Source of the DNA: an uncultured Methylopila sp.
Lineage (GTDB): Bacteria > Pseudomonadota > Alphaproteobacteria > Rhizobiales > Methylopilaceae
Direction: 5' to 3'
NCBI GenBank assembly: GCA_902168115.1
Contig: CABHPB010000141.1
Span: 1 to 64,000, forward strand
Length of the DNA stretch: 64,000 nt
The translations under genes were made by a program, and so were the position numbers. Under the pieces are notes generated by a model. That model did not search any database, had not been told where the DNA came from, and saw nothing but the letters and a program-made list of their open reading frames with translations. Shown piece by piece: positions 13,559 to 63,848 of the stretch (positions are counted from its first letter, which is position 1; every line of letters starts with the position of its first letter).

Positions 13559-13633
13559 GAGTGTGTAGCTCAGTGGTAGAGCGCCGGGCCGAAAGCCCGG
13601 AGGTCGCCGGTTCGAGTCCGGTCATGCCCACCA
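13559..13633 (+). tRNA. tRNA-like element 1. Cloverleaf arms are recognisable and the anticodon loop is CCGAAAG (GAA, Phe-like), but C33 is atypical and the acceptor stem is weak. It may be a pseudo-tRNA.
   Basis: It has TAGCTCAGTGGTAGAGC as the D-arm, ccggg/cccgg as the anticodon stem, and GCCGG-TTCGAGT-CCGGT as the T-arm, followed by CATGCCC-A-CCA. The 5' acceptor GAGTGTG pairs with only 1 mismatch and 2 wobbles. Folded by eye only. Confidence 0.4.
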
Positions 13634-13706
13634 GGATAGCTCAGACGGGTAGAGCAGATGACTGTTAATCATCGTGTCGCGGGTTCGAATCCCGCTCCAT
13701 AACGCT
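13630..13706 (+). tRNA. tRNA-like element 2. Its D, anticodon (CTGTTAA, anticodon GTT, Asn-like) and T arms are canonical, but the acceptor stem does not pair. Its first 4 nt overlap the ACCA end of element 1. It is probably a pseudogene or a recombination remnant.
   Basis: It has TAGCTCAGACGGGTAGAGC, GATGA-CTGTTAA-TCATC and GCGGG-TTCGAAT-CCCGC. The 5' ACCAGGA pairs with the 3' TCCATAA at only 3 positions, and no CCA is encoded. Confidence 0.35.
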
Positions 13707-23338: not shown

Positions 23339-23450
23339 CGTCGTGCGCCTGCGCCTGACCTGTCGTCCCGACTACGGGTACCTCAATACTGCAACACGAG
23401 TTCTTAAGCCCGCGGTGCGACGATCAGCTGATCAACAACGGGCAGGCGTC

Positions 23451-24497
23451 ATGCCGAAGAGACTCATTTGCGCCTTGCTGGCCGCGCTTTCGGCCGCGGC
23501 GCCGGCTGGGGCGGAAACCCTCAACCTGCTCAACTGGGAAAAGTATGTCGACCAGTCGATCCTCGACGCCTGGACGGCGAAGACCGGGGTCGCGGTGCGG
23601 CAGACCTATTTCGACAGCGGCGACGCGCGCGACGAGATCCTGACCGACCCGCTGAGCAGCGTCGACCTCGTGGTCATCGGCGACAACGGCGCGCGGCTTT
23701 ACGGCCGCCGCGGCGTGCTCGAGACGCTCGACGAGAAGAAAGTCTCGTCTCTGGCCGAGTATCCCGAAGATCTGCGCGGGCGCTGCGGCGGGTACGGCGT
23801 GCCTTATTTCACGGGAACCATGGGCATTCTCTACCGTTCCGACCGGATGAGCGTCGCGCCTACGTCCTGGAACGACCTGATGTCGCCAGCGGACGCCCTG
23901 AAGGGCCACGTCGCGATGTACAACGACCCGACGGAGATGTTCGTCGCCCCGCTGGTCGCGCTCGGCAAGTCGATCAACGCCTCCGACCCCAAGACGCTCA
24001 AGGCCGCGTTCGAGCTGCTGAAGGCGCAGGAGCCGGCGGTCCGGACCTACGACTACATTCTGACCTCGTCGCAGAACCCGACCTATGGCGACGAGATCTA
24101 CATGGCGCTCGGCTACAGCGGCGATCAGTTCGCGCTGAACGACATGCCGAAGTCGAGCGGCGCCTGGAAGTTCGCGTTGCCGCGCGAGGGCTCGCTCTAC
24201 TGGCTCGACTGCATGAGCGTCGTCGCCTCCTCGCCCCAGAAGGCGCTGGCGCTCGACCTCCTGAACCACATCGCCGCCGAGCCGAACGCCCTGATCAACG
24301 CCATGGCCCAGCAGCGCCCGACGCCGAACCTCAAGGCCCTGCCGAAGGTGCCGGAGGACATGCGCAAGAACGAGATGATCTACCCGCCGGCCGACGTGCT
24401 CGCGAAGAGCGAGGCACCGCGCGAGCTCACGCCGGAGGGAATCCAGACCCGAAGGCGGATCATCAGCTCGCTGGTGAACTTCCGTGACGCTCGGTAG
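23451..24497 (+). CDS. PotD/PotF-family periplasmic polyamine-binding protein (NspS-like sensor candidate).
   Basis: It has a signal peptide (MPKRLICALLAALSAAAPAGA) and the spermidine/putrescine-binding fold. Its stop overlaps the downstream GGDEF-EAL gene by 14 nt. Confidence 0.8.
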   Translation: MPKRLICALLAALSAAAPAGAETLNLLNWEKYVDQSILDAWTAKTGVAVRQTYFDSGDARDEILTDPLSSVDLVVIGDNGARLYGRRGVLETLDEKKVSSLAEYPEDLRGRCGGYGVPYFTGTMGILYRSDRMSVAPTSWNDLMSPADALKGHVAMYNDPTEMFVAPLVALGKSINASDPKTLKAAFELLKAQEPAVRTYDYILTSSQNPTYGDEIYMALGYSGDQFALNDMPKSSGAWKFALPREGSLYWLDCMSVVASSPQKALALDLLNHIAAEPNALINAMAQQRPTPNLKALPKVPEDMRKNEMIYPPADVLAKSEAPRELTPEGIQTRRRIISSLVNFRDAR

Positions 24498-26817
24498 ACG
24501 CGCTTTCTTCCTCATCTTCCCGGTGGTCTTCGCCGGCTACGCCATAGCCGCGTGTCTCGTCTACGTTTCGCAGCGCGACAGCCAGCAGCGGCTCGAACAG
24601 GCCCGGCTCAGCCAGCAGCTCGAGCATCTGCGCGTCCTGTTCGAGAGCGACGACGGCGTCGACCGCAGCTTCCTGCACGCGATGACCGGCGGCGGCGCCT
24701 TGCGGAGTTTCCTTCAGGAGACCGACGACGCCTATCGCAGCCACGCGCTCGGCGTGCGCCTGCAGCAGGCGATCGACTCGGTCGCGGGCGACAAGCGCTC
24801 GCTTCTGACCTTCTCGATCATGAACAGCGCGCTCAGCGTCGAGCACTATTTCGAGAACAGCACCGACCCCTTCGCCGAGATCGACCCCGAACAGGTGACG
24901 TTCGCCCGGCGCGTCATGACGGACCGTGGCAAGAGCTCCTGGGCGTTCCTTTCGCCCGAGGGCGGCAGGCCCTGGATCGTCCACGCCGACTTCGTCGATC
25001 CGCTCACCATGAACAGGCCGCTCGCGAGCCGGACCCACGCCGCGGTGCTGCTGATGGCGGCGGTGCGGCCGGAGCGGTTCCTGGCGATGAAGCGGGAGCT
25101 CGAGGCCGAGTACGGAGCGAAGCTCGAGATCGCCGACAAGCGGTTCGCCCCGACCGACGGGCTGTCGGCCTCGACCGAGCTCGCCTCGAGCGCCTTCGCG
25201 CGCATGACGCCCGCCGAAAGCTACTTCGGCGACCGGCTCTGGCCGCTCAAGTTCTGGCTGGCGGTCGGCACGATCGTCGTCAGCCTGCTGTCGATCAGCC
25301 TGCTGATGGCGCTGATCCGGCGCTTCATCACGCGCCCGATCGCGCGGCTCGACCGGCAACTGACCGACGTGCTCGCCGGCGAGCGCGCCTCGATCGCGAT
25401 CGCGGAGGAAGGCGGCGAGATCGGCAGCCTCTCGATCAACATGAAGAACCTGCACGACGACTTCGTGCAGTCGCTGAACGGCATCCAGACCGCGTCCTGG
25501 ACGGACACGCTGACGGGCATCAGCAACCGCGCGCATTTCAACGTTCTGGCCGCCGAAGCGCTGGAGTCCGCGGCCCGGCGCGGCTCGCAGTGCGGCCTGC
25601 TGTTCATCGACGTCGACAACTTCAAGTTCGTCAACGACCGCTTCGGCCACGAGATCGGCGACGGCCTCCTGAGGGAGCTCGCCGGGCGCTTCGCCGAAGT
25701 GGTGACGGACGCGGCCGGCCGCGAGAACGTCGCGCGGACCATCTTCGCGCGGCTTTCGGGCGACGAGTTCGCAGTGCTGGTCGAGAGCGGGGATGCGGCG
25801 GCGACGGCCAAGGAGGTCGCGAGCGAACTGCTCGCCGTCAGCGCCTCAGGCTTCGGCGAGCGCTTCCCGATCGGGGTGAGCATCGGCGTCGCCTCGACGA
25901 CGCAGGAGACCGCCGTCTCGCTCGACGAGCTGCTCGCGGACGCCGACGCTGCGATGTACGAGGCCAAGGCCGCCGGCAAGAACCGCTGGGCCAGCTTCTC
26001 GCGCGAGCTGCTCGAGAAGCGCAGCCGCGAGCGCGCCGTCCGGGACGCCCTGCGCGTCCTCGACCTGGACGAAGAGTTCCGGCTCGTCTTCATGCCGATC
26101 GTGGACGTCGACGGTCGCGTCGTCGCATGCGAGGCGCTGCTGCGCTGGACGTCGCCGACGCTCGGGGACGTCAGGCCGGACGAATTCATCCCCATCGCGG
26201 AGCGCAACGGGCTTTTCGCCGTGATCGACCGGTGGGTGATCGACAGGGCGCTGACGGAGCACGAGCGCCTCGCCGCGCTGTTCGGGGCCGACATCGTCGT
26301 CAGCATCAACGTGTCCTCGGCGGAACTCAGCACCATGTCGCTTCGCGACTATCTGGCGGAGCGCCTGTCGGTCCGCGGCGTCGATCCGGCCCTTGTCGAG
26401 ATCGAACTGACCGAGACCTTCGCCGCCGGCTCCCGCCCGGAGGTTCACCGGAGCGTGCGGGCGCTGCGCGACATCGGCGTCAGGATCGCGATCGACGACT
26501 TCGGCGCCGGCTACACCTCGATCCAGCAGATCACCGAATACTCGGTGGACACGATCAAGCTCGACCGCATCTTCGCCGAGCGTCTCGTCAGCTCCAGCGA
26601 GACGCTGCGCGCCCTGGTCGCGCTCTGCCATGCGCAGGGCATGCGAATCGTCGCCGAGGGCATCGACAGCCCCGAGAAGCAGGCGCTCTTCAGCGAAGTC
26701 GGCTGCGACGGCCTTCAGGGCTTCGGGATCTGCCGGCCGCTCGCGCTCGCGGACCTTGGCGTATGGGCGCTCGCGCGCGTGGTCAGCGCGGCGCGGGAGC
26801 GCAGGCGAGCCGTATGA
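24484..26817 (+). CDS. Membrane-bound GGDEF-EAL protein with a periplasmic sensor domain and HAMP (MbaA-like c-di-GMP phosphodiesterase).
   Basis: It has two TM segments flanking a periplasmic domain of about 230 aa. The GGDEF site is degenerate (RLSGDEFAV). The EAL domain has ACEALLRW plus DDFGAGYTS. The alternative-frame ORF 24552..26840 was rejected. Confidence 0.85.
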   Translation: MTLGRRAFFLIFPVVFAGYAIAACLVYVSQRDSQQRLEQARLSQQLEHLRVLFESDDGVDRSFLHAMTGGGALRSFLQETDDAYRSHALGVRLQQAIDSVAGDKRSLLTFSIMNSALSVEHYFENSTDPFAEIDPEQVTFARRVMTDRGKSSWAFLSPEGGRPWIVHADFVDPLTMNRPLASRTHAAVLLMAAVRPERFLAMKRELEAEYGAKLEIADKRFAPTDGLSASTELASSAFARMTPAESYFGDRLWPLKFWLAVGTIVVSLLSISLLMALIRRFITRPIARLDRQLTDVLAGERASIAIAEEGGEIGSLSINMKNLHDDFVQSLNGIQTASWTDTLTGISNRAHFNVLAAEALESAARRGSQCGLLFIDVDNFKFVNDRFGHEIGDGLLRELAGRFAEVVTDAAGRENVARTIFARLSGDEFAVLVESGDAAATAKEVASELLAVSASGFGERFPIGVSIGVASTTQETAVSLDELLADADAAMYEAKAAGKNRWASFSRELLEKRSRERAVRDALRVLDLDEEFRLVFMPIVDVDGRVVACEALLRWTSPTLGDVRPDEFIPIAERNGLFAVIDRWVIDRALTEHERLAALFGADIVVSINVSSAELSTMSLRDYLAERLSVRGVDPALVEIELTETFAAGSRPEVHRSVRALRDIGVRIAIDDFGAGYTSIQQITEYSVDTIKLDRIFAERLVSSSETLRALVALCHAQGMRIVAEGIDSPEKQALFSEVGCDGLQGFGICRPLALADLGVWALARVVSAARERRRAV

Positions 26818-50859: not shown

Positions 50860-52545
50860 TTACGGCTGCGGCTTTGGCGCGTCCGGAGCGGCAGGCGCTG
50901 GCGCGGTCTGGGCGGCCGATTCTGGCTGCGCAGGCGGCGGAGGAGGCGGAGGCGGCAGCGGCTCGAGGCGGCGGAAGGGCAGCGTCCAGGTCTCGGTCAG
51001 CGCCCGGTCGCCGGCCTTCAGGAAGCAGCGGATGTCGACGGTCTGGCCCTTCTCGGCCCGGACGTCGATGCCGACGCGGAAGCCCCGCACCTTCGGATTG
51101 AGCATCAGGAAGCTGCGGATCAGCTGGCCGGACGACACCGACGAGACGATCGAAACCTTGGTCGGGTCCTTGAGGTAGTAAGCGAGCTCGCCGCCGACGA
51201 AGTCGATCAGGAACCGCTGGGTTCCCTCGCCCGGCCCCTCCGGCGCGCCGAGCGCGGCGGCCGGGGCCGAGAAGGTGTTCATGACGCGCCCGCCGCGGTT
51301 GATCTGGGTGTCGTCGGGCATGCAGGTCAGGCGGTAGGCGAAGGCGAGCTCCTTGCCCGGCTCCACCGGCGCCTTTGGCACCCAGTACATGACGGTGTTG
51401 TCGTTGGTCTCGTCCCCGGTGTGGAAGGCGAACAGCTCGATGCGCCCTTCGCCCCATTCGCCATGCGGCTCGATCCAGTAGCTCGGCCGGTTCTCGTAGC
51501 CGAGCTCTAGGTCCTGGTAGTGGTCGTAGTTCCGGTCGCGCTGGATCAGCCCGAACCCCTTCGGGTTGCGGTCGAGGAACTGCGAAGTCTCCGGGTCGCG
51601 CTCGGGATTGACGAGCGGGCGCCAGAGCCACTCGCCCGTGCCGGTGTGGATCAGCAGGCCGTCGCTGTCGTGGAGCTCGGGGCGGAAGTCGGTGAAGCTC
51701 GAGCGGTTCAGCTCGGCGTAGTAGAACATGGAGGTGAGCGGCGCGATGCCGAGCTTCTCGATCGGCTTGCGCGGGACGATCGTGGCGGAGACCTCCACCA
51801 CCGTGTCCTCGCCCGGATAGACCTCGAAGCGGTAGGCGCCGGTCAGCGACACGCTGTCCATCAGCGCGAAGATCACGACGCGGCTGGCGTTCGCGCCCGG
51901 CTGCTCGATCCAGAACTCGCGGAACTCCGGGAACTCCTCCGTCCCGACCGGGCCGCCGGTGCCAACCGTCGCGCCGCGCGCGGACAGGCCATAGACGTCG
52001 CCGCGGCCGAGCACGCGGAAGTAGCTCGCGCCGATGAAGGAGATCAGCTCGTCGAAGTTGCGCGGGTCGTTGAGCGGATAGGCGAGCTTGAAGCCGCCGA
52101 AGCCGAGGTCGACCGGCAGCGGCTTGGCGAGCTTCAGCCCGCCGTAGTCGAACATGGCCGCGGCGTAGGGCACCGGCGCCGCGATGCCGTCGCGCACGAC
52201 GTTCACCACCACCGGCCGCACGAACAGGAAGCCGGGATGGAACAGCTGCAGCCGGAACGGGCTGCCGCCGGCGTCGAGCAGCGACTTTTCGGGCCGGAAG
52301 TTGATGTTGCGGTACTGGTCGAAGGAGAGCTTGTGCAGCTCCTGCGGCAACTCCTTCCCGCCGGCGTCGTAGGGACGGGTCGAGAGATCGCGCGCGCGCT
52401 GGACGACGTCGTCGAATGCGAAGGGCCGCGAGGGCTGCTGCTGGGCGCGCAGCGGGTCTGCGCTGAGCAGCGCTGCGGCTGCGACTCCTGAGGCGAGAGC
52501 GAGCGCGCGGCGGCGCGTGACGGGCGGAAGAATCGTGTCGGGCAT
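50860..52545 (-). CDS. Periplasmic glucan biosynthesis protein of the OpgG/OpgD (MdoG/MdoD) family. The Tat-type signal suggests it is OpgD-like.
   Basis: It has the Tat signal MPDTILPPVTRRRALALASGVAAAALL and the MdoG-family core. It has an unusual C-terminal poly-Pro/Ala tail (PPPPPPPPAQPESAAQTAPAPAAPDAPKPQP). The start was trimmed to the ATG at 52545. Confidence 0.8.
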   Translation of the reverse strand: MPDTILPPVTRRRALALASGVAAAALLSADPLRAQQQPSRPFAFDDVVQRARDLSTRPYDAGGKELPQELHKLSFDQYRNINFRPEKSLLDAGGSPFRLQLFHPGFLFVRPVVVNVVRDGIAAPVPYAAAMFDYGGLKLAKPLPVDLGFGGFKLAYPLNDPRNFDELISFIGASYFRVLGRGDVYGLSARGATVGTGGPVGTEEFPEFREFWIEQPGANASRVVIFALMDSVSLTGAYRFEVYPGEDTVVEVSATIVPRKPIEKLGIAPLTSMFYYAELNRSSFTDFRPELHDSDGLLIHTGTGEWLWRPLVNPERDPETSQFLDRNPKGFGLIQRDRNYDHYQDLELGYENRPSYWIEPHGEWGEGRIELFAFHTGDETNDNTVMYWVPKAPVEPGKELAFAYRLTCMPDDTQINRGGRVMNTFSAPAAALGAPEGPGEGTQRFLIDFVGGELAYYLKDPTKVSIVSSVSSGQLIRSFLMLNPKVRGFRVGIDVRAEKGQTVDIRCFLKAGDRALTETWTLPFRRLEPLPPPPPPPPAQPESAAQTAPAPAAPDAPKPQP

Positions 52546-52699: not shown

Positions 52700-53158
52700 A
52701 GGTTTCGCTTGCGTGGAGGGGCGAACGCCCTTATCTCCCCGCTTGCCCAATTTCGCGCGTGCCTGTGTCGTGTGTCGGGTTGGCGGGAACTCCCCGCCGG
52801 GCAACCCGATGGCCGGAAATCCCAACCGGCTCTAAGTCGCCTCTCCGGCGGCGGACGCGACGTGAAGCAACGACGTAGAGGGCTTTTTTGGTCTCTGTCG
52901 GCTCTCCAAAGGCCGGCGACACTAAAGAGGCGACTACTTCCTTGCCGGGCGCGTGGCGCGGGTAACTCCCAAACCAAGCGTGGCGACGGTTCCCCAACAA
53001 CGGACATCCGTGTCCGGGGATTGTCGTGACTACGGCGTGATCGAGCGGTTCGGCTTCGCGAGAGGTCGGCCACGGAACGACGCAACTTTCGAACCGCGTG
53101 TCTCCACACCGCGCGGATCGAGGGCGCGCCGATCCACCACGCACATCGTGTTTGGGAC
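52700..53158 (+). ncRNA. Long structured 5' leader of the ornithine decarboxylase gene, a candidate alphaproteobacterial speF-leader RNA motif.
   Basis: This is a 460-nt ORF-free stretch with several local hairpins (for example ggcggg-aactc-cccgcc), directly upstream of odc. Known alphaproteobacterial odc genes carry a conserved leader RNA. I assigned it by context only. Confidence 0.4.
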
Positions 53159-54325
53159 GTGACGACCATGACCTCTCACCTCGACGCCCTCGAGAACGAC
53201 CGCCTCCGAGGATTCCTCCGGAACGCCCAGGCCGACGGCCCGATCATGGTCGTCGACAGCGAGATCGTGCGCGAGAACTACGCCAAGTTCGCCCGCGCCC
53301 TGCCGGACACCCGCGTGTTCTACGCCGTCAAGGCGAACCCGGCGCCGGAGATCCTGCAGCTGCTGGCCGACCTCGGCTCGTGCTTCGACTGCGCCTCGGT
53401 CGTCGAGATCGACATGGCGCTGGCGACCGGCGTGAAGCCCGACCGCATCTCGTTCGGCAACACCATCAAGAAGGAGCGCGACGTCGCCGCCGCCTTCGCC
53501 CGTGGCGTGCGCCTGTTCGCGGTCGACTGCCGCGAGGAAGTCGAGAAGATCGAGCGCTCCGCCCCCGGCGCCCGCGTGTTCTGCCGCATCCTGGCCGACG
53601 GCGCCGGCGCCGAGTGGCCGCTGTCGCGCAAGTTCGGCTGCGTCCCGGCGATGGCCGCCGACGTGCTCGAGCACGCCCACGCCCGCGGCCTCGTCGCGTA
53701 CGGCGTGTCGTTCCATGTCGGCTCGCAGCAGAACAATGTCGGCGCGTGGGACGCCGCGCTCGCCTCCGCCGCGGAGATCTTCCGCGAGTGCGAGCGCCGC
53801 GGCATCTACCTGTCGATGGTGAACCTCGGCGGCGGCTTCCCGACCCGCTACCTGAAGGACATCCCGGCGGTCGACGCCTATGGCAATGCGATCTTCGAGG
53901 CGCTGAAGGCGCATTTCGGCAACCGCATCCCGGAGACCATCATCGAGCCGGGCCGCGGCATGGTCGGCAACGCCGGCGTGATCGAGGCCGAAGTGGTGCT
54001 GATCTCGAAGAAGTCGGACGCCGAGGACGAGATCCGCTGGGTCTATCTCGACATCGGCAAGTTCGGCGGCCTCGCCGAGACCATGGACGAGGCGATCCGT
54101 TACCCGATCCGCACCGCCCATGACGGCGACGCGGTGGCCCCCTGCGTGCTCGCCGGCCCGACCTGCGACTCGGCCGACGTGATGTACGAGAAGGCGCCCT
54201 ACGCGCTGCCGGTCAGCCTCTCGATCGGCGACAAGGTGCTGATCGAGGCCTGCGGGGCCTACACGACCACCTATGCGGCGGTCGCGTTCAACGGCTTCGC
54301 GCCGCTGGCCTCGCACGTCATCTGA
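53159..54325 (+). CDS. Ornithine (or lysine/ornithine) decarboxylase, PLP-dependent fold-type III.
   Basis: It has FYAVKANPAPEILQLL with the PLP lysine, GGGFPTRY, and EPGRGMVG. The protein is 388 aa. Confidence 0.85.
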   Translation: MTTMTSHLDALENDRLRGFLRNAQADGPIMVVDSEIVRENYAKFARALPDTRVFYAVKANPAPEILQLLADLGSCFDCASVVEIDMALATGVKPDRISFGNTIKKERDVAAAFARGVRLFAVDCREEVEKIERSAPGARVFCRILADGAGAEWPLSRKFGCVPAMAADVLEHAHARGLVAYGVSFHVGSQQNNVGAWDAALASAAEIFRECERRGIYLSMVNLGGGFPTRYLKDIPAVDAYGNAIFEALKAHFGNRIPETIIEPGRGMVGNAGVIEAEVVLISKKSDAEDEIRWVYLDIGKFGGLAETMDEAIRYPIRTAHDGDAVAPCVLAGPTCDSADVMYEKAPYALPVSLSIGDKVLIEACGAYTTTYAAVAFNGFAPLASHVI

Positions 54326-54405
54326 GCCCTCAAGGTCCCCCACGGGGGACCGCTCGTCCCACAAAGTGACCCGCAAGGTCGTCTGACCCCCATCAGGAGG
54401 GTTTC

Positions 54406-54957
54406 ATGGCCGTCATTCTTGACGAGGCTCCGGCTGACGCCGGGGCCCGCGAGGCCCTGCTCGACCGCGCCTTCGGCGCAGGCCGTTTCACCAAGACCTG
54501 CGAGCGTCTGCGCGAGGGCCGGATTCCGGCGTCCGGCCTCGCGCTCAAGGCGGTGGACGAGACCGGCCGCATGATCGGCACGCTGCGTTTCTGGCACGTG
54601 ACGATCGGAACGGAGCGGCCCGCGCTCATGCTTGGACCGCTCGCGGTCGAGTCGGCCTCCCGCGAGGGCGGCGTCGGCTCGTCGCTGATGCGCGCAGGCC
54701 TGGCGCGGGCCGCGGCGCTCGGCCACGACGCCGTCATCCTGGTCGGCGACCGGCCTTATTACGAGCGCTTCGGCTTTTCGGGCGAGGCGACGGCGGAGCT
54801 TGAGATGCCCGGCCCGGTGGAGCGGGACAGGTTTCTCGCGCTCGAGCTCAAGGCCGGCGCGCTCGCGGGCGCGTCCGGCGAGGTGCGCGGCGCCGGCGCG
54901 GTCGCCTTCGCGCCGCGCAAGTCCGTCAAAGACCGGGTCGCAGCTCGAGCGGCCTGA
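54406..54957 (+). CDS. GNAT-family N-acetyltransferase adjacent to odc.
   Basis: It has an acetyltransferase fold. AGGAGGG lies upstream of the ATG. It sits 80 nt after odc, with a stem-loop ggtcccc-cacg-ggggacc between them. Confidence 0.7.
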   Translation: MAVILDEAPADAGAREALLDRAFGAGRFTKTCERLREGRIPASGLALKAVDETGRMIGTLRFWHVTIGTERPALMLGPLAVESASREGGVGSSLMRAGLARAAALGHDAVILVGDRPYYERFGFSGEATAELEMPGPVERDRFLALELKAGALAGASGEVRGAGAVAFAPRKSVKDRVAARAA

Positions 54958-55498
54958 TTAGGCTCGCGGACTTCAGGACGCGGGGCTGACGCGGGCCGGC
55001 CTTGTCCGCGAGCAGGAAGGGCTGGACCGGCTGCCTGGTCATCTCGGCGATCAGCAGCCGCTCGCGCCGATTGTAGAGCCGCGTCTCGTCCAGCGAGACG
55101 TAGCTCTTCGGCGCGCCAATCTGGCCGCCCTTGAACACCACCACGCGGTCGGTCAGCACCAGGATGTCGCCGCGCTTCAGCGTCGGGTCGATCAGGTGCC
55201 AGTCGGGATTTGCGACGGGGTCGATGACCCGCGCCATCTGCTGCTTGGCGTCGAAGGGAGACAGCGGATTGAGCATGACGAGCCCGGTCGGCTTGCGGTG
55301 TTTGGCGGTCCGCAGCGGCTTCTTCGCGACGGGCTTTGCGATCGTCACGTCCGGATGCGCGGGCGCTGCGACGGGCGCGGGCTCGCGGCGGCCGAACAGA
55401 AAGTCAAACAGTCCCGCCTGCGCGGTCGACACCGTGAGGAAGCTCGCGACGAAGGCGACCCCGAGCGTCTTCCAGCCACCAAGCTGCTTCCAGCCCAT
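54926..55498 (-). CDS. Hypothetical membrane-anchored or secreted protein of 190 aa.
   Basis: It has an N-terminal hydrophobic segment (TLGVAFVASFLTVSTAQA). It overlaps the GNAT gene end convergently. Confidence 0.45.
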   Translation of the reverse strand: MGWKQLGGWKTLGVAFVASFLTVSTAQAGLFDFLFGRREPAPVAAPAHPDVTIAKPVAKKPLRTAKHRKPTGLVMLNPLSPFDAKQQMARVIDPVANPDWHLIDPTLKRGDILVLTDRVVVFKGGQIGAPKSYVSLDETRLYNRRERLLIAEMTRQPVQPFLLADKAGPRQPRVLKSASLIRPLELRPGL

Positions 55499-55630
55499 CG
55501 ACCCCTCCAGCGACGACTTCTCGCAGGAGCGATGTAGCCGAGAGGCGGCCGGAATGGCGCCGCCCGGGGCCTCCCGGCGGCGCGAAGTTTTAAGTTAAAG
55601 TTAACTCGAATGAAGGGCTTGAGGCTCGCC

Positions 55631-56269
55631 TCACCAGCGCAGCAGGCGCGCCCCCACGGCTGCGCCGACGACCGTCACCAGGCAGACGGCGAGCGTGTAC
55701 CAGACGCCGACGAAGAGCGGGGAGTCGTTCGGGCAGAAGGCGGCGTAGGCCGTCGCGCCGATCGCCCCGGCGAGCAGCCCGGCCGCCGCCCCGAGACCGG
55801 CGGGCGATCCCGGCGCGCCCCGACGCATCGCGAGCAGGATCGCGGCGAGCGGCGCCGCCGAAAACAGCGGCACGTGGACCAGGCAGACGAGCCAGTTGAT
55901 CCCCATCACCCGCTCGCGCCACAGCCCGCTCGGCGTGACATACATCTCGACGAGCATGGCGGCGGCCAGCACCGCGATTGCGCCGAACAGGGCGACACGG
56001 GCGGGGGCGAGCGCCGCGCCCGGACGCGCCAGCCGCATGGCGAGCGCAGCCGCAGCGGCGCCGAATGCGCAGGTCACGACGAACTTCATCGGGAAGCGCA
56101 CCGCCGCGAAGGACGGATCGACCTCCGGACGCGGCGGCAGCATGCCCCACGCGGCGATCCACGCCGCGACCGCGGAGACCGCGAGCGCGATCCACACCGC
56201 CGGCGCCAGGCGCTTCGGCGGCGTCGCCGCGTCTGCGGCGATCGCGCGGATCAGATCCTCGGTCCTCAT
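55631..56269 (-). CDS. nrsF: NrsF-family (DUF1109) membrane anti-sigma factor.
   Basis: It starts MRTEDLIRAIAADAATPPKRL, followed by six TM helices. Its ATG overlaps the sigF stop (ATGA). The track fused it into a 397-aa ORF with a wrong upstream extension. Confidence 0.75.
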   Translation of the reverse strand: MRTEDLIRAIAADAATPPKRLAPAVWIALAVSAVAAWIAAWGMLPPRPEVDPSFAAVRFPMKFVVTCAFGAAAAALAMRLARPGAALAPARVALFGAIAVLAAAMLVEMYVTPSGLWRERVMGINWLVCLVHVPLFSAAPLAAILLAMRRGAPGSPAGLGAAAGLLAGAIGATAYAAFCPNDSPLFVGVWYTLAVCLVTVVGAAVGARLLRW

Positions 56270-56820
56270 TCCCGGAAACTCCTGTAGGCTTGGCTGAGCG
56301 CCGCCAGGCCCCTGTGCAGCGCGACCCTCACCGCGCCTTCGCTCATGCTCAGCTTCTCGGCCGTCTCGCCGATGTCGGCGCCGTCGACCGAAATGGACTT
56401 CACCACCTCGTGCTGGCGGCCCTTCAGGACGGAGATGAGCTTCTCCGCCTCGCCGGGCCTGAGGCCGTCGTCGTCGCCGGCCTCGGCCGGCAGGACCTCC
56501 GCGAAGTCCTCGACCGGCACGTGGACGCGCCGTCCCTTGCGGCGGAGCGCGTCGATCAGCTTGTTGCGCGCGATAGCCGCGACCCACGGCCCGACGGGCT
56601 GGCGTTCGTCCCAGGTGCCGCGCTTCAGATGGATCGCAAGCAGCGTCTCCTGCACCACGTCCTCGACATCTGCGGAGGCGAGCCCGTAGCTCGCCGCCCG
56701 GTTGCGGACGACGCTCCGCACGAAGGGAGCGAGCGCCGACAGCAGACGCCGATAGGCCGCGGCGTCGCCTGCGAGCGCCGACGCCATCCAGTCCGACCAG
56801 TCCGCTTCCCGTTCCTTCAC
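56266..56820 (-). CDS. sigF: ECF-subfamily RNA polymerase sigma factor (SigF-like).
   Basis: It has the sigma-70 region 2 (DVVQETLLAIHLKRGTW) and region 4 (EKLSMSEGAVRVALHRG). It has a GTG start with AAGGA upstream. Confidence 0.85.
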   Translation of the reverse strand: MKEREADWSDWMASALAGDAAAYRRLLSALAPFVRSVVRNRAASYGLASADVEDVVQETLLAIHLKRGTWDERQPVGPWVAAIARNKLIDALRRKGRRVHVPVEDFAEVLPAEAGDDDGLRPGEAEKLISVLKGRQHEVVKSISVDGADIGETAEKLSMSEGAVRVALHRGLAALSQAYRSFRE

Positions 56821-56841
56821 GCAAGGTCCTTTGACGAGGCC

Positions 56842-56867
56842 TACGGCCGAAGTCGGCGGCTTGTTAC
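56842..56867 (-). promoter_or_regulatory. Candidate autoregulatory sigmaF-type promoter for sigF-nrsF, reading GTAACA-N16-CGTA on the minus strand.
   Basis: It matches GTAACC-N16-CGAA at 8/10 positions and lies about 25 nt upstream of the sigF start. Confidence 0.35.
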
Positions 56868-56923
56868 GCGCGCGAGGCGGCGCGGCGGGGCCGAACTTTT
56901 TTCTACACGGATGCGTGACGGAC

Positions 56924-56949
56924 GTAACGGCCCGGCCCGTCGCGGCGAA
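56924..56949 (+). promoter_or_regulatory. SigmaF-type ECF promoter GTAACG-N16-CGAA driving the bufferin operon.
   Basis: It is an exact N16 spacer match to the reported sigmaF consensus. It lies about 55 nt upstream of the bufA ATG and divergent from sigF. Confidence 0.55.
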
Positions 56950-57002
56950 ACCTCCGTCACGAGCCGCGCGACGGCTCGATCGGAGAACTCAGGAGAAACA
57001 CC

Positions 57003-57284
57003 ATGCCTGCTCGCACCGTCAACGCCGCGCTCGCCGGCTCCCTGCTCGCCGCCCTGTCGATCGTCTCGGCCTCGGCCGCCGAGGACAAGATGGCCGGCAA
57101 AGAGAAGTGCTACGGCGTCGCCATGAAGGGCCAGAACGACTGCGCCGCCGGCCCCGGCACCACCTGCGCCGGCACCTCCAAGGTCGACTACCAGGGCAAC
57201 GCCTGGAAGGCCGTGGCCAAGGGCACCTGCACCACCATGAAGACCCCGAAGGGCATGGGCTCGCTCGAGCCGATCAAGATGTGA
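57003..57284 (+). CDS. bufA: DUF2282-family Cys-containing secreted peptide (bufferin precursor, BufA-like).
   Basis: It has the signal peptide [28 protein letters not shown]. The core has 4 Cys ([25 protein letters not shown]...[11 protein letters not shown]). AGGAGAA lies upstream of the ATG. Confidence 0.75.
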
Positions 57285-57483
57285 CGCTTCTTCCCTGATC
57301 CCTCTCTCGAAGATGGGAGGGTGGCCGAGCCGAAGGCGAGGTCGGGTGGGGTCGGTTCAGAACAAGGCGCGCGGTCGACGCCGCGCTTCACGATCCAAGT
57401 ACCCACCCGTCCCCGGCTGCGTCGGGGCCACTCTCCCCGCTGCCGCGGGCAGGGATCCCCATGCCGCCTCCGGAGCCGACCTC

Positions 57484-58335
57484 ATGACCCCGACCGCCCT
57501 CCCCGCCACATCCGGCGTCGGCTTCAAGCCGGAGCATTTCGCGGCCATCCTCGAGGCCGGCTTCGACGGCTTCCTCGAGGTCCACGCCGAGAACTACATG
57601 GGCGCGGGCGGACCGCCGCACGCGATGCTCGGGCGGTTGCGCGAGGACCATGCGCTGTCGATCCACGGCGTCGGCCTGTCGATCGGCGGGGCCGGACCGC
57701 TCGACCGCGACCACCTCGCCCGCCTCAGGACGCTCTGCGACCGCTACGCACCGGAGAGCTTTTCGGAGCATCTGGCATGGTCGACGCATGACGGCGACTT
57801 CCTCAACGACCTCCTGCCCCTGCCCTACACGCAGGAGACGCTTCGACGCGTGGTCGCGCATGTCGACCAAACGCAGGACGCGCTCGGCCGGAAGATGCTG
57901 CTGGAGAACCCGGCGACCTACGTGACCTTCGCCGAAAGCGACGTTCCCGAGACCGAGTTCCTCGCCGAGATCGCGCGCCGCGCCGGCTGCGGACTGCTGC
58001 TCGACGTCAACAACGTCTTCGTCTCGGCGACCAATCACGGTTTTTCCGCCGACGCCTATCTTGCGGCGTTTCCTCTCGACTTCGTGGGCGAGATCCATCT
58101 CGGGGGGCACGACGCGCAGGAGGACGACGCCGGCGCGCCGCTGCTGATAGACGCCCACGGCGCGCCCGTGGCGGATCCGGTCTGGACGCTCTACGAGCGT
58201 GTGCTGGCGCGGACCGGCCCGATCGCCAGCCTCATCGAATGGGACAACGACGTGCCCGACTGGTCGACGCTCGCCGCCGAAGCGAAGCGCGCCGACGCCC
58301 TGATGGCCGGCGCCGCGCGCCGTCGCGCCGCCTGA
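57484..58335 (+). CDS. bufB: DUF692 / UPF0276 TIM-barrel protein (MNIO multinuclear non-heme iron oxidase, BufB-like).
   Basis: It contains [36 protein letters not shown] and EIHLGGHD. The start was trimmed to the ATG at 57484. The track ORF begins at 57313 with a junk extension. Confidence 0.85.
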
Positions 58336-58346
58336 GGCCCCGCGCC

Positions 58347-59123
58347 ATGTCCGCCGCGACCGAGACCGCCTTCGGCGCCGCCCTCCGCGACCCGGGCCGC
58401 GGAGCGCCCGCCCACTTGGCTCCGTCGTCGGGCCGGCGCCCGGAGCGGCGCTTCTCGGTCTATCGCAACAACGTCGCCGTCTCGCTGATGGGCGCGCTCG
58501 CGACGCGGTTTCCAGCCGCGCGGCGCATCGTCGGCGAAGCGTTCTTCGACGAACTCGCCAGAGCTTATGTCGCGCAGCATCCACCGCGCTCGCCGCTGAT
58601 GATGATGTATGGCGACGATTTTCCCGAGTTCGTCGCGCAGGCGCCAGGCCTCGACGAGGTCTCCTATCTCGCCGACATCACGCGGCTGGAGGCGGCGCGG
58701 ACCCGAGCCTATCACGCCGCCGACGCAGATCCTTTGCCGGCTTCCGCCTTCGCGGCTCTCGATGGCGCGCTCGACGAGGTCCGCCTTGCGCTCCACCCGT
58801 CGGTCGAGGTGGTGCGGTCCGGGCATCCGCTCGTGACGATCTGGGCGATGAACTCCGGCGAAGCTGAGCTTGGCCCCATCGCCGACTGGTCGCCGCAAGA
58901 CGCGCTGGTCTGCCGGCCCGAGCTTGACGTTTTCGTCCGCCGGCTGCCGGACGGCGGCGCGGCGTTCCTGGTGGCGCTCGCCGGGGGCGCGACGCTCGCC
59001 GACGCCGCCGGCCGCGCCGCGCAGGAGGCGCGCAGCTTCGACCTCACGGAAAACCTGATCGGCCTGATCGGCGGCGGCCTCGTCGTCGCGATCCGGCCCT
59101 CGCAACAGGGAGACGCGCCATGA
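58347..59123 (+). CDS. bufC: DUF2063-family protein (MNIO partner, BufC-like).
   Basis: The hallmark RFSVYRNNV is present. The ATG at 58347 lies 12 nt after the bufB stop. Confidence 0.8.
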   Translation: MSAATETAFGAALRDPGRGAPAHLAPSSGRRPERRFSVYRNNVAVSLMGALATRFPAARRIVGEAFFDELARAYVAQHPPRSPLMMMYGDDFPEFVAQAPGLDEVSYLADITRLEAARTRAYHAADADPLPASAFAALDGALDEVRLALHPSVEVVRSGHPLVTIWAMNSGEAELGPIADWSPQDALVCRPELDVFVRRLPDGGAAFLVALAGGATLADAAGRAAQEARSFDLTENLIGLIGGGLVVAIRPSQQGDAP

Positions 59124-59599
59124 GCGCCATCGACGTCCGCCCGCCCGTCCTGTCCGGCCCCGCGGAGGCGATCCGCCGCCTGTTCGGCCTGTTCGAGGCC
59201 ATCCCCTATTCGCTGCTGGCGCTGGCGGCGCGGGTGTTTCCGGCGGCGGTGTTCTGGCAGTCCGGCCAGACCAAGACGCAGGGGCTGAACGTCTTCGCGC
59301 TCTCCGACAGCGCGGTGTTCCTTTTTCAGGAAGAGTACAAGCTCCCGCTGGTCGACCCGACGGTGGCGGCGCATGGCGCGGCGATCGCAGAGCACCTGTT
59401 CCCCGCGCTGCTCGTCATCGGCCTCGCCAGCCGCTTTTCGGCGCTCGCGCTGCTCGGCATGACGCTGGTCATCGAGATCTTCGTCTATCCGGACGCCTGG
59501 CCGACGCACGGCACCTGGGCCGCCTGCTTCCTGCTGGTCATCGCCCGCGGGCCGGGCGTGGTCTCGCTCGACCATCTCATCGCGAAGCGCTGGGGGTGA
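59120..59599 (+). CDS. bufD: DoxX-family membrane protein (BufD-like).
   Basis: It has four TM helices of the DoxX pattern. Its ATGA overlaps the bufC stop. Confidence 0.8.
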   Translation: MSAIDVRPPVLSGPAEAIRRLFGLFEAIPYSLLALAARVFPAAVFWQSGQTKTQGLNVFALSDSAVFLFQEEYKLPLVDPTVAAHGAAIAEHLFPALLVIGLASRFSALALLGMTLVIEIFVYPDAWPTHGTWAACFLLVIARGPGVVSLDHLIAKRWG

Positions 59600-59685: not shown

Positions 59686-61119
59686 ATGACCGACTGGCCC
59701 GTCTACGCAAAGATCGACGGCCCCATCGTCATCATCGGCTTCGGCTCGATCGGACGCGGCACGCTGCCCCTCATCGAGCGCCACTTCGAGTACGACAAGG
59801 ACCGGATCGTCGCGATCGACCCGTCCGACCTCAACAAGCACATCCTCGACAAGCACGGCGTGCCGTTCATCCAGCAGCACGTCACCAAGGAGAACTATCG
59901 CGAGCTGCTGACTCCGCTGCTCACCAAGGGCGGCGGTCGCGGTTTTTGCGTGAACCTCTCGGTCGACACCGGCTCGGCGGACCTCATGGCGCTCTGCCAG
60001 GAGCTCGGCTGCCTCTACATCGACACCGTCAACGAGCCGTGGCTCGGATTCTACTTCGACAAGACCAAGGGCCCGTCCGAGCGCTCGAACTACGCGCTGC
60101 GCGAGATCACGCTCGACCTTCGCCGCCGCTCGCCGAAGGGCCTACCGACCGCCGTCTCCACCTGCGGGGCGAACCCCGGGATGGTGTCGTTCTTCGTCAA
60201 GCAGGCGGCGCTGAACATCGCCTCCGACCTTAAGCTCAACGTTCCCGAGCCGAAGAACCGCGAGGAGTGGGCGGCGCTGCTGCGGCAGATCGGCGTGAAG
60301 GGCGTCCACATCGCCGAGCGCGACACCCAGCGCACCACGGACCCCAAGCCTCGCGGCGTGTTCCTCAACACCTGGTCGGTCGAGGGCTTCATCTCGGAAG
60401 GGCTGCAGCCGGCCGAGCTCGGCTGGGGCACGCATGAGAAGTGGATGCCGGCCAACGGCAAGACCCATGAGGATCCGAAGGCGGCGGCGATCTACCTGAT
60501 GCAGCCGGGCGCGGCGACCAAGGTCCGCACCTGGTGCCCGACGCCGGGTCCCCAGTACGGCTTCCTCGTCACCCACAACGAGTCGATCTCGATCGCCGAC
60601 TACTTCACCGTCTGGGAGGACGGCAAGGCGGTCTACCGCCCGACCTGCCACTACGCCTACCACCCGGCCGACGACGCCGTGCTGTCCTGGCACGAGCTGT
60701 TCGGCGCGGAAGGCAAGGTGCAGGACAAGCTGCACGTGCTCGACGAGGACGAACTCACCGACGGCGTCGACGAGCTCGGCGTGCTGCTCTACGGCCACGG
60801 CAAGGGCGCCTACTGGTACGGCTCGCAGCTCTCGCTCGAGGAGACCCGCACGCTTGCGCCCTACCAGAACGCGACCGGTCTGCAGGTGACCTCCGCCATC
60901 CTCGCCGGCATGGTCTGGGCGATCGAGAACCCGAACGAGGGCATCGTCGAAACCGACGAGATGGACTTCAAGCGCTGCCTGGAGATCCAGCGCCCCTATC
61001 TCGGGCCGGTGAAGGGCTACTACACCGACTGGACGCCGCTCGAGAACCGCCCGGGCCTGTTCCCGGAGGAGATCGACGAGAGCGATCCCTGGCAGTTCCG
61101 GAACTTCTTCGTCGGGTGA
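59686..61119 (+). CDS. hss: Homospermidine synthase (NAD-dependent).
   Basis: It starts MTDWPVYAKIDGPIVIIGFGSIGRGTLPLIERH. The protein is 477 aa, the typical length and N-terminus for bacterial HSS. AAGGAG lies upstream of the ATG. Confidence 0.9.
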   Translation: MTDWPVYAKIDGPIVIIGFGSIGRGTLPLIERHFEYDKDRIVAIDPSDLNKHILDKHGVPFIQQHVTKENYRELLTPLLTKGGGRGFCVNLSVDTGSADLMALCQELGCLYIDTVNEPWLGFYFDKTKGPSERSNYALREITLDLRRRSPKGLPTAVSTCGANPGMVSFFVKQAALNIASDLKLNVPEPKNREEWAALLRQIGVKGVHIAERDTQRTTDPKPRGVFLNTWSVEGFISEGLQPAELGWGTHEKWMPANGKTHEDPKAAAIYLMQPGAATKVRTWCPTPGPQYGFLVTHNESISIADYFTVWEDGKAVYRPTCHYAYHPADDAVLSWHELFGAEGKVQDKLHVLDEDELTDGVDELGVLLYGHGKGAYWYGSQLSLEETRTLAPYQNATGLQVTSAILAGMVWAIENPNEGIVETDEMDFKRCLEIQRPYLGPVKGYYTDWTPLENRPGLFPEEIDESDPWQFRNFFVG

Positions 61120-61162: not shown

Positions 61163-61599
61163 GCGGCGTTTGGCTCGACGGCCTCAATCTCTAAAAGTAG
61201 TGGGCGCTTTCGGCGCCGTCGAAGCGGCCGGCCTCAAGGCAACACGCCTTGAAACCGGCGGCCCGATCCGCAGGGGCACGGATCCTTGCGGCCGAGCCTC
61301 TCGATAAGTTCGACGTCGCCGTGGACGATGCGGACACCGCGTTTGACGCGGGTCTCGGACGGGAACGACTTACGCCGTTTGCTCGTGCGTTCGAAAGCAC
61401 GAGGCGTCGTCGTGGATGCGCTTGATCGCCATGACAGCCTCCCGGTCTCATCCGCCGAAAGCCGGCGCGCGCCTCGATAGACGGCGCTGACCTCCTCGGC
61501 AACAGGTCCCCGCGACGCTGACGTTCGGGCCGCGCGCTTGGCTCACGCGCCTGCTGGCGCTAGGGATGCGCCGTCTCCCGCAGCAAAGCCGACGCCCGC

Positions 61600-62865
61600 A
61601 TGTCCTCCTCCGCCGTCTGGCGTCCGTTCACGCAGCACGCGCTCGAGCCCGACCCGCCCGCGATCGCCCGCGCCGAAGGCGCGTGGCTCACCGACGCGAG
61701 CGGACGGAAGATCCTCGACGCCATCTCGTCCTGGTGGGTCACGACCCACGGCCACCGCCACCCGCGTATCATCGCGGCGATCCGCGAGACGGCGGAGAGC
61801 CTCGACCAGGTCATCTTCGCCGGGCTGACGCACGAGCCGGCCGAACGCCTGGCCGCCGGCCTCGTGGAGATCGCGCCAGCCGGCCTGTCGCACGTGTTCT
61901 TCTCCGATTCCGGGTCGACCGCGGTCGAGGTCGCGCTGAAGATGGCGTTGGGCTACTTCCGCAACCTCGGCGAGGCGCGCACGCGGGTCGCGGTGCTCGA
62001 GGGCGGCTATCACGGCGACACCATCGGCGGGATGAGCGTCGGCGAACGCGGCGTGTTCAACGCGGCCTATGCGCCGCTGCTGTTCGAGGTCGAGCGGGTT
62101 CCGTTTCCGGGCGACGGCGGCGAGCAGGCGGCGCTCGACGCGATCGAGCGCGCAGGCTCACGAGGCGACCTCGCCGCGCTGCTGGTCGAGCCGCTCGTGC
62201 TCGGCGCCGGAGGCATGCGCATCTACACTCCTGCGACACTGGCGCGGCTCGCGGAGGCCGCCCGGGCGCACGGCGCGCTGCTGATCGCCGACGAGGTCAT
62301 GACCGGCTGGGGCCGGAGCGGAACCCTCTTCGCCTGCGAGCAGGCCGGCCTGTCGCCCGACATCCTCTGCACGTCGAAGGGACTGACCGGCGGCGCGATC
62401 CCGCTCGCGGCGACGCTTGCGACGCAGGCGATCTTCGACGCGCACTGGTCGAGCGACAGGGCCAAGACCTTCTTCCATTCCTCGTCCTACACCGCGAACC
62501 CGATCGCCTGCGCCGCGGCGCTCGCCAATCTCGACGTCTGGCGCGAGGAACCGGTCCGAGAGCGCATCACACGGCTGGCGGAAATGCAGGGCGAACGGGT
62601 GTCGCGCGTGGCTTCCGACCCACGGTTCCGCAACGTCCGTCGCTGCGGGACGATCGCAGCCGTCGATCTACACGTCTCGGACCCGGGATATCTCGCGGAC
62701 GTCGGTCCGAGACTGCGCGCATTCTTCCTGGAGCGCGGCCTTCTCGTGCGGCCGCTCGGGGACGTGATCTATCTGATGCCGCCATATTGCATCACCGAGG
62801 CGGAGCTCGACGTGCTGTACGACGCCATCGCAGAGGCGGCGGACCGGTTCGGAGCGCCGCGATGA
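61600..62865 (+). CDS. bioA: Adenosylmethionine-8-amino-7-oxononanoate aminotransferase.
   Basis: It has [18 protein letters not shown] and [11 protein letters not shown]. The protein is 421 aa. Confidence 0.9.
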
Positions 62866-63848
62866 AAGCTGCCGGAACGACCATCCTCGGCTTCGGCCAT
62901 GCGGTCCCGGCGCGCCGGGTGGCGAGCGCCGAGATCGAGCGCGACCTCGGCCTCGAAGACGGCTGGATCGAGCGGCGCACGGGCGTGCGGGAGCGGCGCT
63001 GGGCCGGGCCCGACGAGACGCTGACAGACCTTGCGACGAAGGCCGGCGAGCGCGCCCTCGCCGCGTCGGGGCTCGGCCGCGGCGACGTCTCGCTGCTGCT
63101 GCTCGCCACCTCGACGCCGGATCGGCTTCTGCCGCCCTCGGGTCCGCTGGTCGCGCACAAGCTCGGCCTGACGCGCGCCGGCGCGGTCGACATGGCGGGC
63201 GCCTGCGCGGGCTTCGTCTATGCGCTGACGCTCGCCGACGCGCATGTCCGCGCCCATGGCCGCCCGGCGCTGGTGATCGCCGCGAACCTGCTCAGCCGCC
63301 GCATCAATTTCGCCGAACGCGGCGGGGCTGCGCTGTTCGCGGACGCGGCCGGCGCCGTGCTGCTCGGTCCGACGGACGACGCAGGCTCCGGCGTGCTCGG
63401 GCAGTCGCTCGCCTCCGACGGCGCGGGCTACGATCTCGTCTCGATCGCGGCCGGCGGCAGCGAGCGTCCGTTCACGGCCGACATGCCGATCGAGGACACG
63501 CGCATGGCGATCTCGAACGGCGGAGCGCTGTTCGCCGGCGCCGTCCACCTGATGACCGAATGCTCGCGCGAGGCGATGGCGGAGGCGGACGTCGCGGTCG
63601 AGGCGATCGACCGCTTCACGCCGCATCAGGCGAACGCCCGCATCTTCGCGGCCGTGGGCCGCAAGCTCGGCCTCGCCGACGGCGTGATGGTGAGCACGGT
63701 CGCCGACTATGGCAACTCGTCGGCGGCGACGATTCCGCTGTCGCTCAGCCTGTCGCATGAGGCGAGGCCGATCCGGCGCGGCGAGACCCTGCTGCTCGCC
63801 GCCGCAGGCGCCGGACTGACCGGCGGCGCGGCGGTCTATCGAACCTGA
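62862..63848 (+). CDS. bioZ: FabH-like 3-oxoacyl-ACP synthase III paralog in a bio operon (BioZ-like).
   Basis: It has KAS III active-site motifs ([23 protein letters not shown]). Its ATGA overlaps the bioA stop. The track fused it into a 760-aa ORF from 61566. Confidence 0.7.

Follow-up and report, generated by a model that had tools for sequence, protein, structure and literature searches.

We analysed a 64,000-nucleotide (nt) stretch of contig CABHPB010000141.1 from an uncultured Methylopila sp., hereafter the window, in which an ornithine decarboxylase gene (odc) lies behind a long intergenic region and is followed by a gene for a GNAT acetyltransferase. A preliminary description of this DNA had proposed a structured RNA of the speF type in front of odc. 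We find that the odc leader carries two RNA families catalogued in Rfam, ar45 and the speF leader, in tandem behind a conserved putative promoter. The G+C content of the window is 69.5%, and the gap between the upstream neighbour, whose minus-strand ATG is at 52545, and the odc ATG at 53168 measures 622 nt. The leader and the two genes behind it comprise the following features, with lengths in nt, base pairs (bp) or amino acids (aa):

52708-52736, plus strand: putative sigma-70-type promoter P1 (-35 CTTGCG at 52708-52713, 17-nt spacer, -10 TTATCT at 52731-52736)
52745-52887, plus strand: ar45 module (RF02347), a long bulged stem with three apical hairpins on top
52884-52889 and 52890-52895, plus strand: U6 tract and GGUCUC linker, between the ar45 and speF modules
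52896-53016, plus strand: speF leader in its Rfam extent (RF00518), which holds hairpin HP1 and the P2 hairpin
52896-52918, plus strand: hairpin HP1, loop CUCCAAA at 52904-52910
52929-52931 with 52944-52946, plus strand: P2 hairpin, GGC paired with GCC
52980-53093, plus strand: variable insertion of about 110 nt in the speF module
53094-53116, plus strand: HP2, a second hairpin with a CUCCA loop (stem CCGCGUG / CGCGCGG, loop UCUCCACAC)
53154-53157, plus strand: weak Shine-Dalgarno (SD) sequence GGGA predicted from the sequence, 10 nt before the odc ATG
53168-54325, plus strand: odc, pyridoxal-phosphate-dependent lysine/ornithine decarboxylase of the alanine racemase fold, 385 aa
54334-54351, plus strand: G+C-rich 7-bp hairpin in the odc-GNAT spacer, from sequence and folding, with no U-run
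54406-54957, plus strand: YhbS-like GNAT acetyltransferase, 183 aa, with its own AGGAGG ribosome-binding site

The odc product matches the Pfam families Orn_Arg_deC_N (2.5e-54) and Orn_DAP_Arg_deC (6.7e-13), and its closest solved relatives are lysine/ornithine decarboxylases (PDB 5gjm, E 8e-60). A genome scan with the decarboxylase yielded 80 loci across Hyphomicrobiales, the best of them encoding a Methylopila henanensis protein with 86% amino acid identity. Leaders from 79 relatives were aligned with MAFFT, and counts given out of 79 refer to this alignment. A GTG at 53159 also opens the odc reading frame; because the ATG at 53168 aligns in 79/79 relatives, the alignment indicates that this ATG is the true start.

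All Rfam families were searched across the whole window with covariance models at their gathering-score cutoffs. The ar45 model matches over its full length (model positions 1-148) at 52745-52887 on the plus strand, with 46.0 bits against a gathering score of 40 and an E-value of 7.9e-07. The search with the speF model, which the preliminary description had suggested as a check, returned a match on the same strand at 52896-53016 (model positions 1-153) with 39.8 bits against 37 and an E-value of 1.8e-06. In the window the speF match starts 8 nt 3' of the ar45 match, and in relatives 7-8 nt lie between the two. No further ar45 or speF match was found in the window even at E<=1, and at that threshold the other polyamine genes in the window carry no ar45- or speF-like element either. 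Judging from these matches, the odc leader is evidently a composite of the two catalogued modules; the proposed speF-type structure is there, and the single leader originally described is resolved into ar45 followed by speF.

The same arrangement recurs in relatives. When 20 related loci were scanned with the Rfam models, ar45 was detected in 18 and speF in 18, every locus had at least one of the two families, and they were always found in tandem just upstream of odc. The 79 aligned leaders share near-invariant blocks corresponding to 52744-52980 of the window and a further conserved block at about 53097-53112, and the region before the odc ATG varies in both sequence and length. Because the leader is conserved in relatives, as the preliminary description had anticipated, it is very unlikely that the Rfam matches are spurious. 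From the predicted transcription start to the ATG the leaders span 310-515 nt (median 447), and the window's leader, at 424 nt, is close to the 460 nt or so first estimated. Folding of the whole leader (437 nt) gives -202.8 kcal/mol with z = -3.46, and 1/100 shuffled sequences was as stable, in keeping with its earlier description as hairpin-rich. Two related loci have an additional ar45 copy downstream of odc-GNAT-hss, where hss is the homospermidine synthase gene. In L018 this copy lies at 6932-7133, up to the end of the available sequence. In L004 it lies at 6549-7140 and heads a full second leader, in which the loop equivalent to that of HP1 reads GCGAAU in place of CUCCAAA. Because this second leader precedes a second odc paralogue (ATG at 6936), ar45 can be said to travel with odc.

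The element in the window is a rediscovery, at its usual place, of one that is already known. The 'extended speF element' of Corbino et al. 2005, which lies in front of the ornithine decarboxylase gene in alphaproteobacteria, spanned both parts. It starts near a putative transcription start with a long stem that carries a variable four-stem junction on top, and continues further 3' with a bulged stem-loop of about 80 nt and then more conserved blocks (PMC1273637). In the study of del Val et al. [quoted passage not shown] In Bartonella, Wachter et al. 2020 reported a short ar45 RNA and a speF-containing transcript of more than 700 nt (PMC7717549). We found no functional resolution of the speF/ar45 element in the accessible literature.

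Promoter P1 is conserved throughout the 79 leaders, with a -35 of the form CTTGnn, a TA-containing -10, a spacer of 17 nt (69/79) or 16 nt (the remaining 10), and an A at -11 in 78/79. The sequence GCCCAA, which is the 5' end of ar45, follows the -10 by 7-8 nt (8 nt in the window). P1 fits both the alphaproteobacterial consensus CTTGAC-N17-CTATAT and the mapped start site of Smr45C (PMC3346310). From this conservation we infer that transcription starts at about 52743-52745, 424 nt before the odc ATG. The preliminary description had named a start close to the ATG as an outcome that would undo its proposal, and a conserved promoter this far upstream argues against such a start. In S. meliloti an internal promoter overlapping the 3' end of ar45, called promoter P2, has been proposed (PMC3346310). 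In the window and its relatives it would have to take the U-tract as its -10 (CTTTTT or TTTTTT). Because this -10 has the key A at -11 in 0/79 leaders, promoter P2 is unlikely to be an internal promoter in these taxa.

The ar45 module is closed by a basal helix of GCCC (52745-52748) with GGGC (52880-52883), and the Rfam architecture emerges again when RNAalifold is applied to 36 non-redundant ar45 sequences. Among relatives both partners have changed in 13 pairs, which lie in inner and apical helices; the basal helices are invariant, as are their internal loops. The length of the apical part is variable, with totals of about 90 to 255 nt. Folded alone, the domain closes its basal helix with a probability of 0.99 in the window, and with a mean of 0.94, above 0.5 in 79/79, across the leaders. 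The U-tract abuts this helix directly and reads T6 in 61/79 leaders and at least five T in 72/79, followed by the near-invariant GGTCTC linker. Here a conserved U-run stands behind a 139-nt branched domain whose closing helix is predicted to form, and in S. meliloti the 3' end of Smr45C maps to the U-tract (PMC3346310). We regard the U6 tract and its linker as a candidate site of attenuation or processing and as the candidate 3' end of ar45.

Within the ar45 strand CGCACG, only the window and its sister genome L001 change an otherwise invariant A to G (52757). The same two sequences also change the invariant CGUGCG of the speF module (52950-52955) to CGCGUG or CGCGCG, and these changes would keep a 6-bp long-range helix between the two modules. 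As a proposal, this pairing of the ar45 5' strand CGCACG with CGUGCG has two supporting sequences and two contradicting ones (L005 and L071, which change one side), and we treat it as a lead only.

In the speF module, HP1 has six pairs with changes on both sides among relatives, and the P2 hairpin is invariant. A further helix around HP1 proposed by RNAalifold, UUGGU (52888-52892) with ACUAA (52921-52925), shows one-sided changes only and is unproven. The stretch from 52980 to 53093 has near-zero conservation across the 79 leaders and is absent or shorter in most relatives. HP1 and HP2 are about 200 nt apart in the window and L001, compared with about 110-117 nt in many relatives. The 3' third of the Rfam match (about 52980-53016) is probably a forced alignment onto this insertion. 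The real speF module reaches about 53116, so that the Rfam match ends about 100 nt early, and it does so, with a marginal score, because the insertion of about 110 nt separates HP2 from the core.

Comparison of the leaders shows that the conserved block at the 3' end of the speF module is really HP2. This hairpin, with a loop of the type (C/U)UCCAnn, occurs in 61/79 leaders, and its stem takes many sequences that compensate for one another's changes. When 38 distinct HP2 sequences were aligned without gaps, 94.3% of cells were paired, a percentage that is inflated by the choice of sequences with at least 4 bp; this choice does not inflate the diversity of pair types. All six pairs covary, with 49 double-change cells compared with 14.8 +/- 2.9 in shuffles, and 0/500 shuffles were as high. 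Under a strict search, two hairpins sharing one 7-nt loop occur in 50/79 leaders, and 71/79 have one or more. The HP2 sequence is included in the Rfam speF model (about positions 117-137), but the pairing annotated there is limited to 3 bp, between the 3' CGC of HP2 and a distant GCG. That GCG:CGC pairing fails in many leaders, which read GCACG while GUGCGG is unchanged. HP2 is absent as a hairpin from the Rfam structure; Greenlee et al. 2018 is said to contain an updated speF consensus, which may already include it.

Downstream of odc, the GNAT product matches Acetyltransf_1 (Pfam, 3.3e-06) and the structures 4rs2 and 4zbg (E about 1e-13). Its similarity is generic (GNAT/YhbS-like), and the PDB search gave no match to SpeG-type enzymes. 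The gene lies immediately 3' of odc in 70/80 related loci, as counted by tally and tblastn. In the window the spacer between the two genes is 80 nt, and its hairpin at 54334-54351 is not terminator-like because it is without a U-run, which bears out the earlier view that GNAT follows a non-terminating stem-loop. A consensus terminator scan found no terminator-like site on the plus strand between 52400 and 55100. GNAT is the second gene of the odc operon, and we define the operon as P1-leader-odc-GNAT.

With moderate confidence, we favour a reading in which one transcript starts at P1 and has two fates, being terminated or cut at the U-tract to give ar45, or extended by read-through into odc and GNAT. 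RNA polymerase would start at about 52744 and the ar45 domain would fold, whereupon its closing helix and the U-tract would end or cut a fraction of the transcripts as an ar45 RNA of about 145 nt. The other transcripts would continue across the speF domain to cover odc and the GNAT gene. A polyamine-related signal, either a small molecule such as sym-homospermidine or a protein, may set the balance, and the leader would thereby tune putrescine synthesis. The closely matching expression published for the short and the long RNA (PMC3346310) fits a shared promoter, and among the relatives ar45 is found only before odc genes, the second copy before the odc paralogue in L004 included.

A number of observations weigh against this reading. 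The terminal helix has only 4 bp before an internal loop, which is not a canonical compact terminator, and in a few relatives the U-tract is interrupted (TTCTCT or TTCTAG). The ar45 stem and U-tract were not called by the consensus terminator scan, because the stem is long-range. Both experimental papers take ar45 and speF to be independently expressed (PMC3346310, PMC7717549). In-line probing showed no binding of ornithine, lysine, diaminopimelate, putrescine, cadaverine or spermidine (PMC1273637), and a 2024 review still sees no strict evidence for a riboswitch (PMC11477304). We found no convincing conserved alternative pairing in the leader. When the pairing probability of the SD was computed by pseudoknot-free folding of the last 140 nt of the 79 leaders, it was not above chance (0.71 vs 0.71 with shuffled upstream sequence, and higher than the control in 39/79), which gives no support to SD sequestration as the output. 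The leader was found to contain neither the mutually exclusive structures nor the SD occlusion by which the expression platform of a metabolite riboswitch is recognised.

A further reading, which we think quite improbable, is that ar45 itself is an aptamer that senses a ligand and uses its own closing helix as the terminator stem too, combining a riboswitch with a generator of small RNA (sRNA). The ligand would be a compound of the polyamine pathway, such as sym-homospermidine, in which the ancestrally linked odc-GNAT-hss cluster ends, or an acetylated amine produced by the co-transcribed GNAT. Its binding would fix the basal helix against the U-tract, shutting off odc and releasing an Hfq-binding small RNA that acts in trans. 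This reading agrees with a basal stem whose internal loops are invariant, with an apical region that can be dispensed with and with a U-tract that stays fixed. In the accessible literature we found no published test of binding of homospermidine or acetylated amines to the leader. If this reading were true, a 20-year-old orphan would be resolved.

The same leader could also be two independent units, with ar45 a trans-acting, Hfq-dependent sRNA that has its own promoter and terminator, and the speF-odc mRNA made from promoter P2. Northern blots in S. meliloti and B. bacilliformis do show a discrete ar45 of about 150 nt and a separate long speF-odc species (PMC3346310, PMC7717549), Smr45C co-immunoprecipitates with Hfq and the P2 motif was proposed in S. 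meliloti (PMC3346310), and a -35-like CTT(A/G)AA is conserved here. However, Northern blots do not distinguish whether the two species are initiated independently or come from termination with read-through or from processing, the -35-like bases also belong to the conserved ar45 stem, and the -10 of promoter P2 is the U-tract itself with no -11 A in any leader. In addition, ar45 is never found away from odc, keeps its fixed 7-8 nt distance from speF and shares its expression profile with the long RNA in S. meliloti (PMC3346310), and we consider two units unlikely. A different output, which is possible if rather doubtful, would be a leader that binds a protein or an sRNA in place of a metabolite, its CUCCA loops in HP1 and HP2 docking the factor or masking the odc ribosome-binding site as anti-SD loops. 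The recurrence of two hairpins with the same loop, whose stems covary and whose loops are fixed, speaks for this, as do the complementarity of UCUCC to the common GGAGA SD of odc and the failure of all six pathway metabolites to bind in vitro (PMC1273637). Yet complementarity of an anti-SD-like loop to any SD is automatic and hence not evidence, pairing of the SD equals its shuffled control, and the HP2 loop is the predicted partner of the SD in 6/61 leaders (again in pseudoknot-free folding). The HP2 loop is also not CUCCA in the Rfam consensus, and no candidate protein is known.

Control by a leader peptide, with a short upstream open reading frame (ORF) that senses ornithine on the ribosome as SpeFL does, is extremely unlikely. 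It is suggested by analogy with gammaproteobacterial speF (bioRxiv 10.1101/604074) and by mechanically called plus-strand ORFs in the leader, including 52709-53029 (106 aa) and 52953-53162 (69 aa), which arise because the DNA is about 70% G+C. The leader had been described as ORF-free, which does not hold for such mechanical ORFs but does for conserved ones: across the 79 leaders no frame or peptide is kept, measured from one invariant anchor the starts of candidate ORFs fall in each of the three frames, and the similarity of their peptides merely mirrors nucleotide conservation. The 69-aa ORF, which ends at the odc start, has a counterpart in no relative, the stretch leading up to the ATG differs between leaders in both sequence and length, and the decarboxylase encoded here folds differently from enterobacterial SpeF. 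The lack of a conserved frame across relatives rules out a conserved leader peptide.

The genes around the operon bear on the wider claim that the window holds a distributed polyamine regulon, and are as follows:

59686-61119, plus strand: hss, homospermidine synthase (PDB 4plp, E 9.4e-233)
54926-59599: 4.7-kb insert splitting odc-GNAT-hss, a bufferin/ECF-sigma cluster plus an unknown convergent ORF
55631-56269, minus strand: NrsF anti-sigma factor, in the insert
56266-56820, minus strand: extracytoplasmic function (ECF) sigma factor, in the insert
57313-58335: BufB-type MNIO bufferin maturase (NCBIfam, 378.8 bits vs a cutoff of 310)
58239-59123: HvfC-like protein, in the insert
59120-59599: DoxX, in the insert
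23343-26817: SBP_bac_8 periplasmic solute-binding protein and 777-aa GGDEF-EAL protein, genes overlapping by 14 nt
50860-52545, minus strand: MdoG/OpgD-like periplasmic glucan-synthesis gene, the divergent upstream neighbour, ATG at 52545

In 47/80 relatives hss lies co-oriented within 3 kb downstream of odc (40 with odc-GNAT-hss and 7 with odc-hss), with a median GNAT-hss gap of about 209 nt, and none of the genes of the insert occurs in the flanks of the 80 related loci. From this synteny we infer that hss was ancestrally adjacent to odc-GNAT and has been displaced by 4.7 kb here by the insert. We found no conserved element upstream of hss. The pair at 23343-26817, which is 26 kb from odc, has the domain make-up of the polyamine-sensing NspS/MbaA system, and we found no link between it and the odc locus. 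The regulon claim can be kept for hss, which synteny ties to odc-GNAT, and not for the NspS/MbaA-like pair.

The MdoG/OpgD-like gene is also the divergent neighbour of ar45-speF-odc in about a third of the related loci (27/80), and would share with that unit a divergent promoter region of about 160 nt. Elsewhere in the window, 13559-13698 holds a tRNA-Phe(GAA) whose acceptor stem has mismatches and whose position 33 is, unusually, a C. Directly behind it lies a second tRNA-like sequence with anticodon GUU that is without most of its acceptor stem, scores 52 bits with Rfam and is not called by ARAGORN. The mechanical ORF at 61566-63848 is 760 aa long, and only its residues 434-759 match FabH (beta-ketoacyl-ACP synthase III, 482.9 bits). 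The N-terminal 430 residues probably represent either a separate gene or an ORF called too long because the DNA is G+C-rich.

For the window itself, the gain is one of annotation: the 5' region of odc is an ar45 and speF leader. This matters little for the window, and the residual interest lies in the mechanism of the speF/ar45 family, which ranks among the longest-standing riboswitch candidates that still lack a ligand. For that question the comparative results narrow the targets to be tested. They point to one conserved promoter with no credible internal one, to an invariant basal helix that abuts a U-tract, and to a covarying HP2 that the Rfam structure lacks, and they offer neither an upstream ORF nor programmed SD occlusion as a route of control. 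The ancestral linkage of hss to the operon narrows them further.

Among known systems, SpeFL of enterobacterial speF (bioRxiv 10.1101/604074; PMC6386406) is alike in having a long regulatory leader upstream of an ornithine decarboxylase gene, and differs in that the enzyme fold here is unrelated, no upstream ORF is conserved and the sequences are not related. The speF family (RF00518) is matched above its gathering score, in the 5' leader of a COG0019 ornithine decarboxylase, on the same strand and in an alphaproteobacterium. The likeness extends to a first hairpin with a UCCA-containing loop, a GAAGAGGC...UUGCC hairpin, a GUGCGG-type block and a distal conserved block. The copy in the window differs from the family in the insertion of about 110 nt between core and distal block and in its low score of 39.8 bits, and in this clade the distal block is the covarying local hairpin HP2, where Rfam has a 3-bp long-range pairing.

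The likeness to ar45/Smr45C (RF02347) lies in a full-length model match above the gathering score, a conserved sigma-70-type promoter directly upstream, a long bulged stem with a branched top, a 3' U-tract, and a position immediately upstream of speF and odc. The window's copy has an apical part shorter than in most relatives (143 nt, compared with as much as about 230 nt) and carries the A to G change in its internal loop. In S. meliloti this RNA is a discrete, Hfq-binding species, as seen by co-immunoprecipitation with Hfq, and in B. bacilliformis it gives a Northern signal. In outline the leader also resembles riboswitch-derived sRNAs and terminator-embedded aptamers, in which a leader domain that ends at a U-tract gives a short RNA and read-through gives the mRNA. 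Examples are the Listeria lysine riboswitch, which acts in cis and in trans (cited in PMC3346310), and the HMP-PP riboswitch (cited in PMC7266159). The stem in front of the U-tract is here a long-range closing helix in place of a compact hairpin, and we take the likeness as one of resemblance and not of membership.

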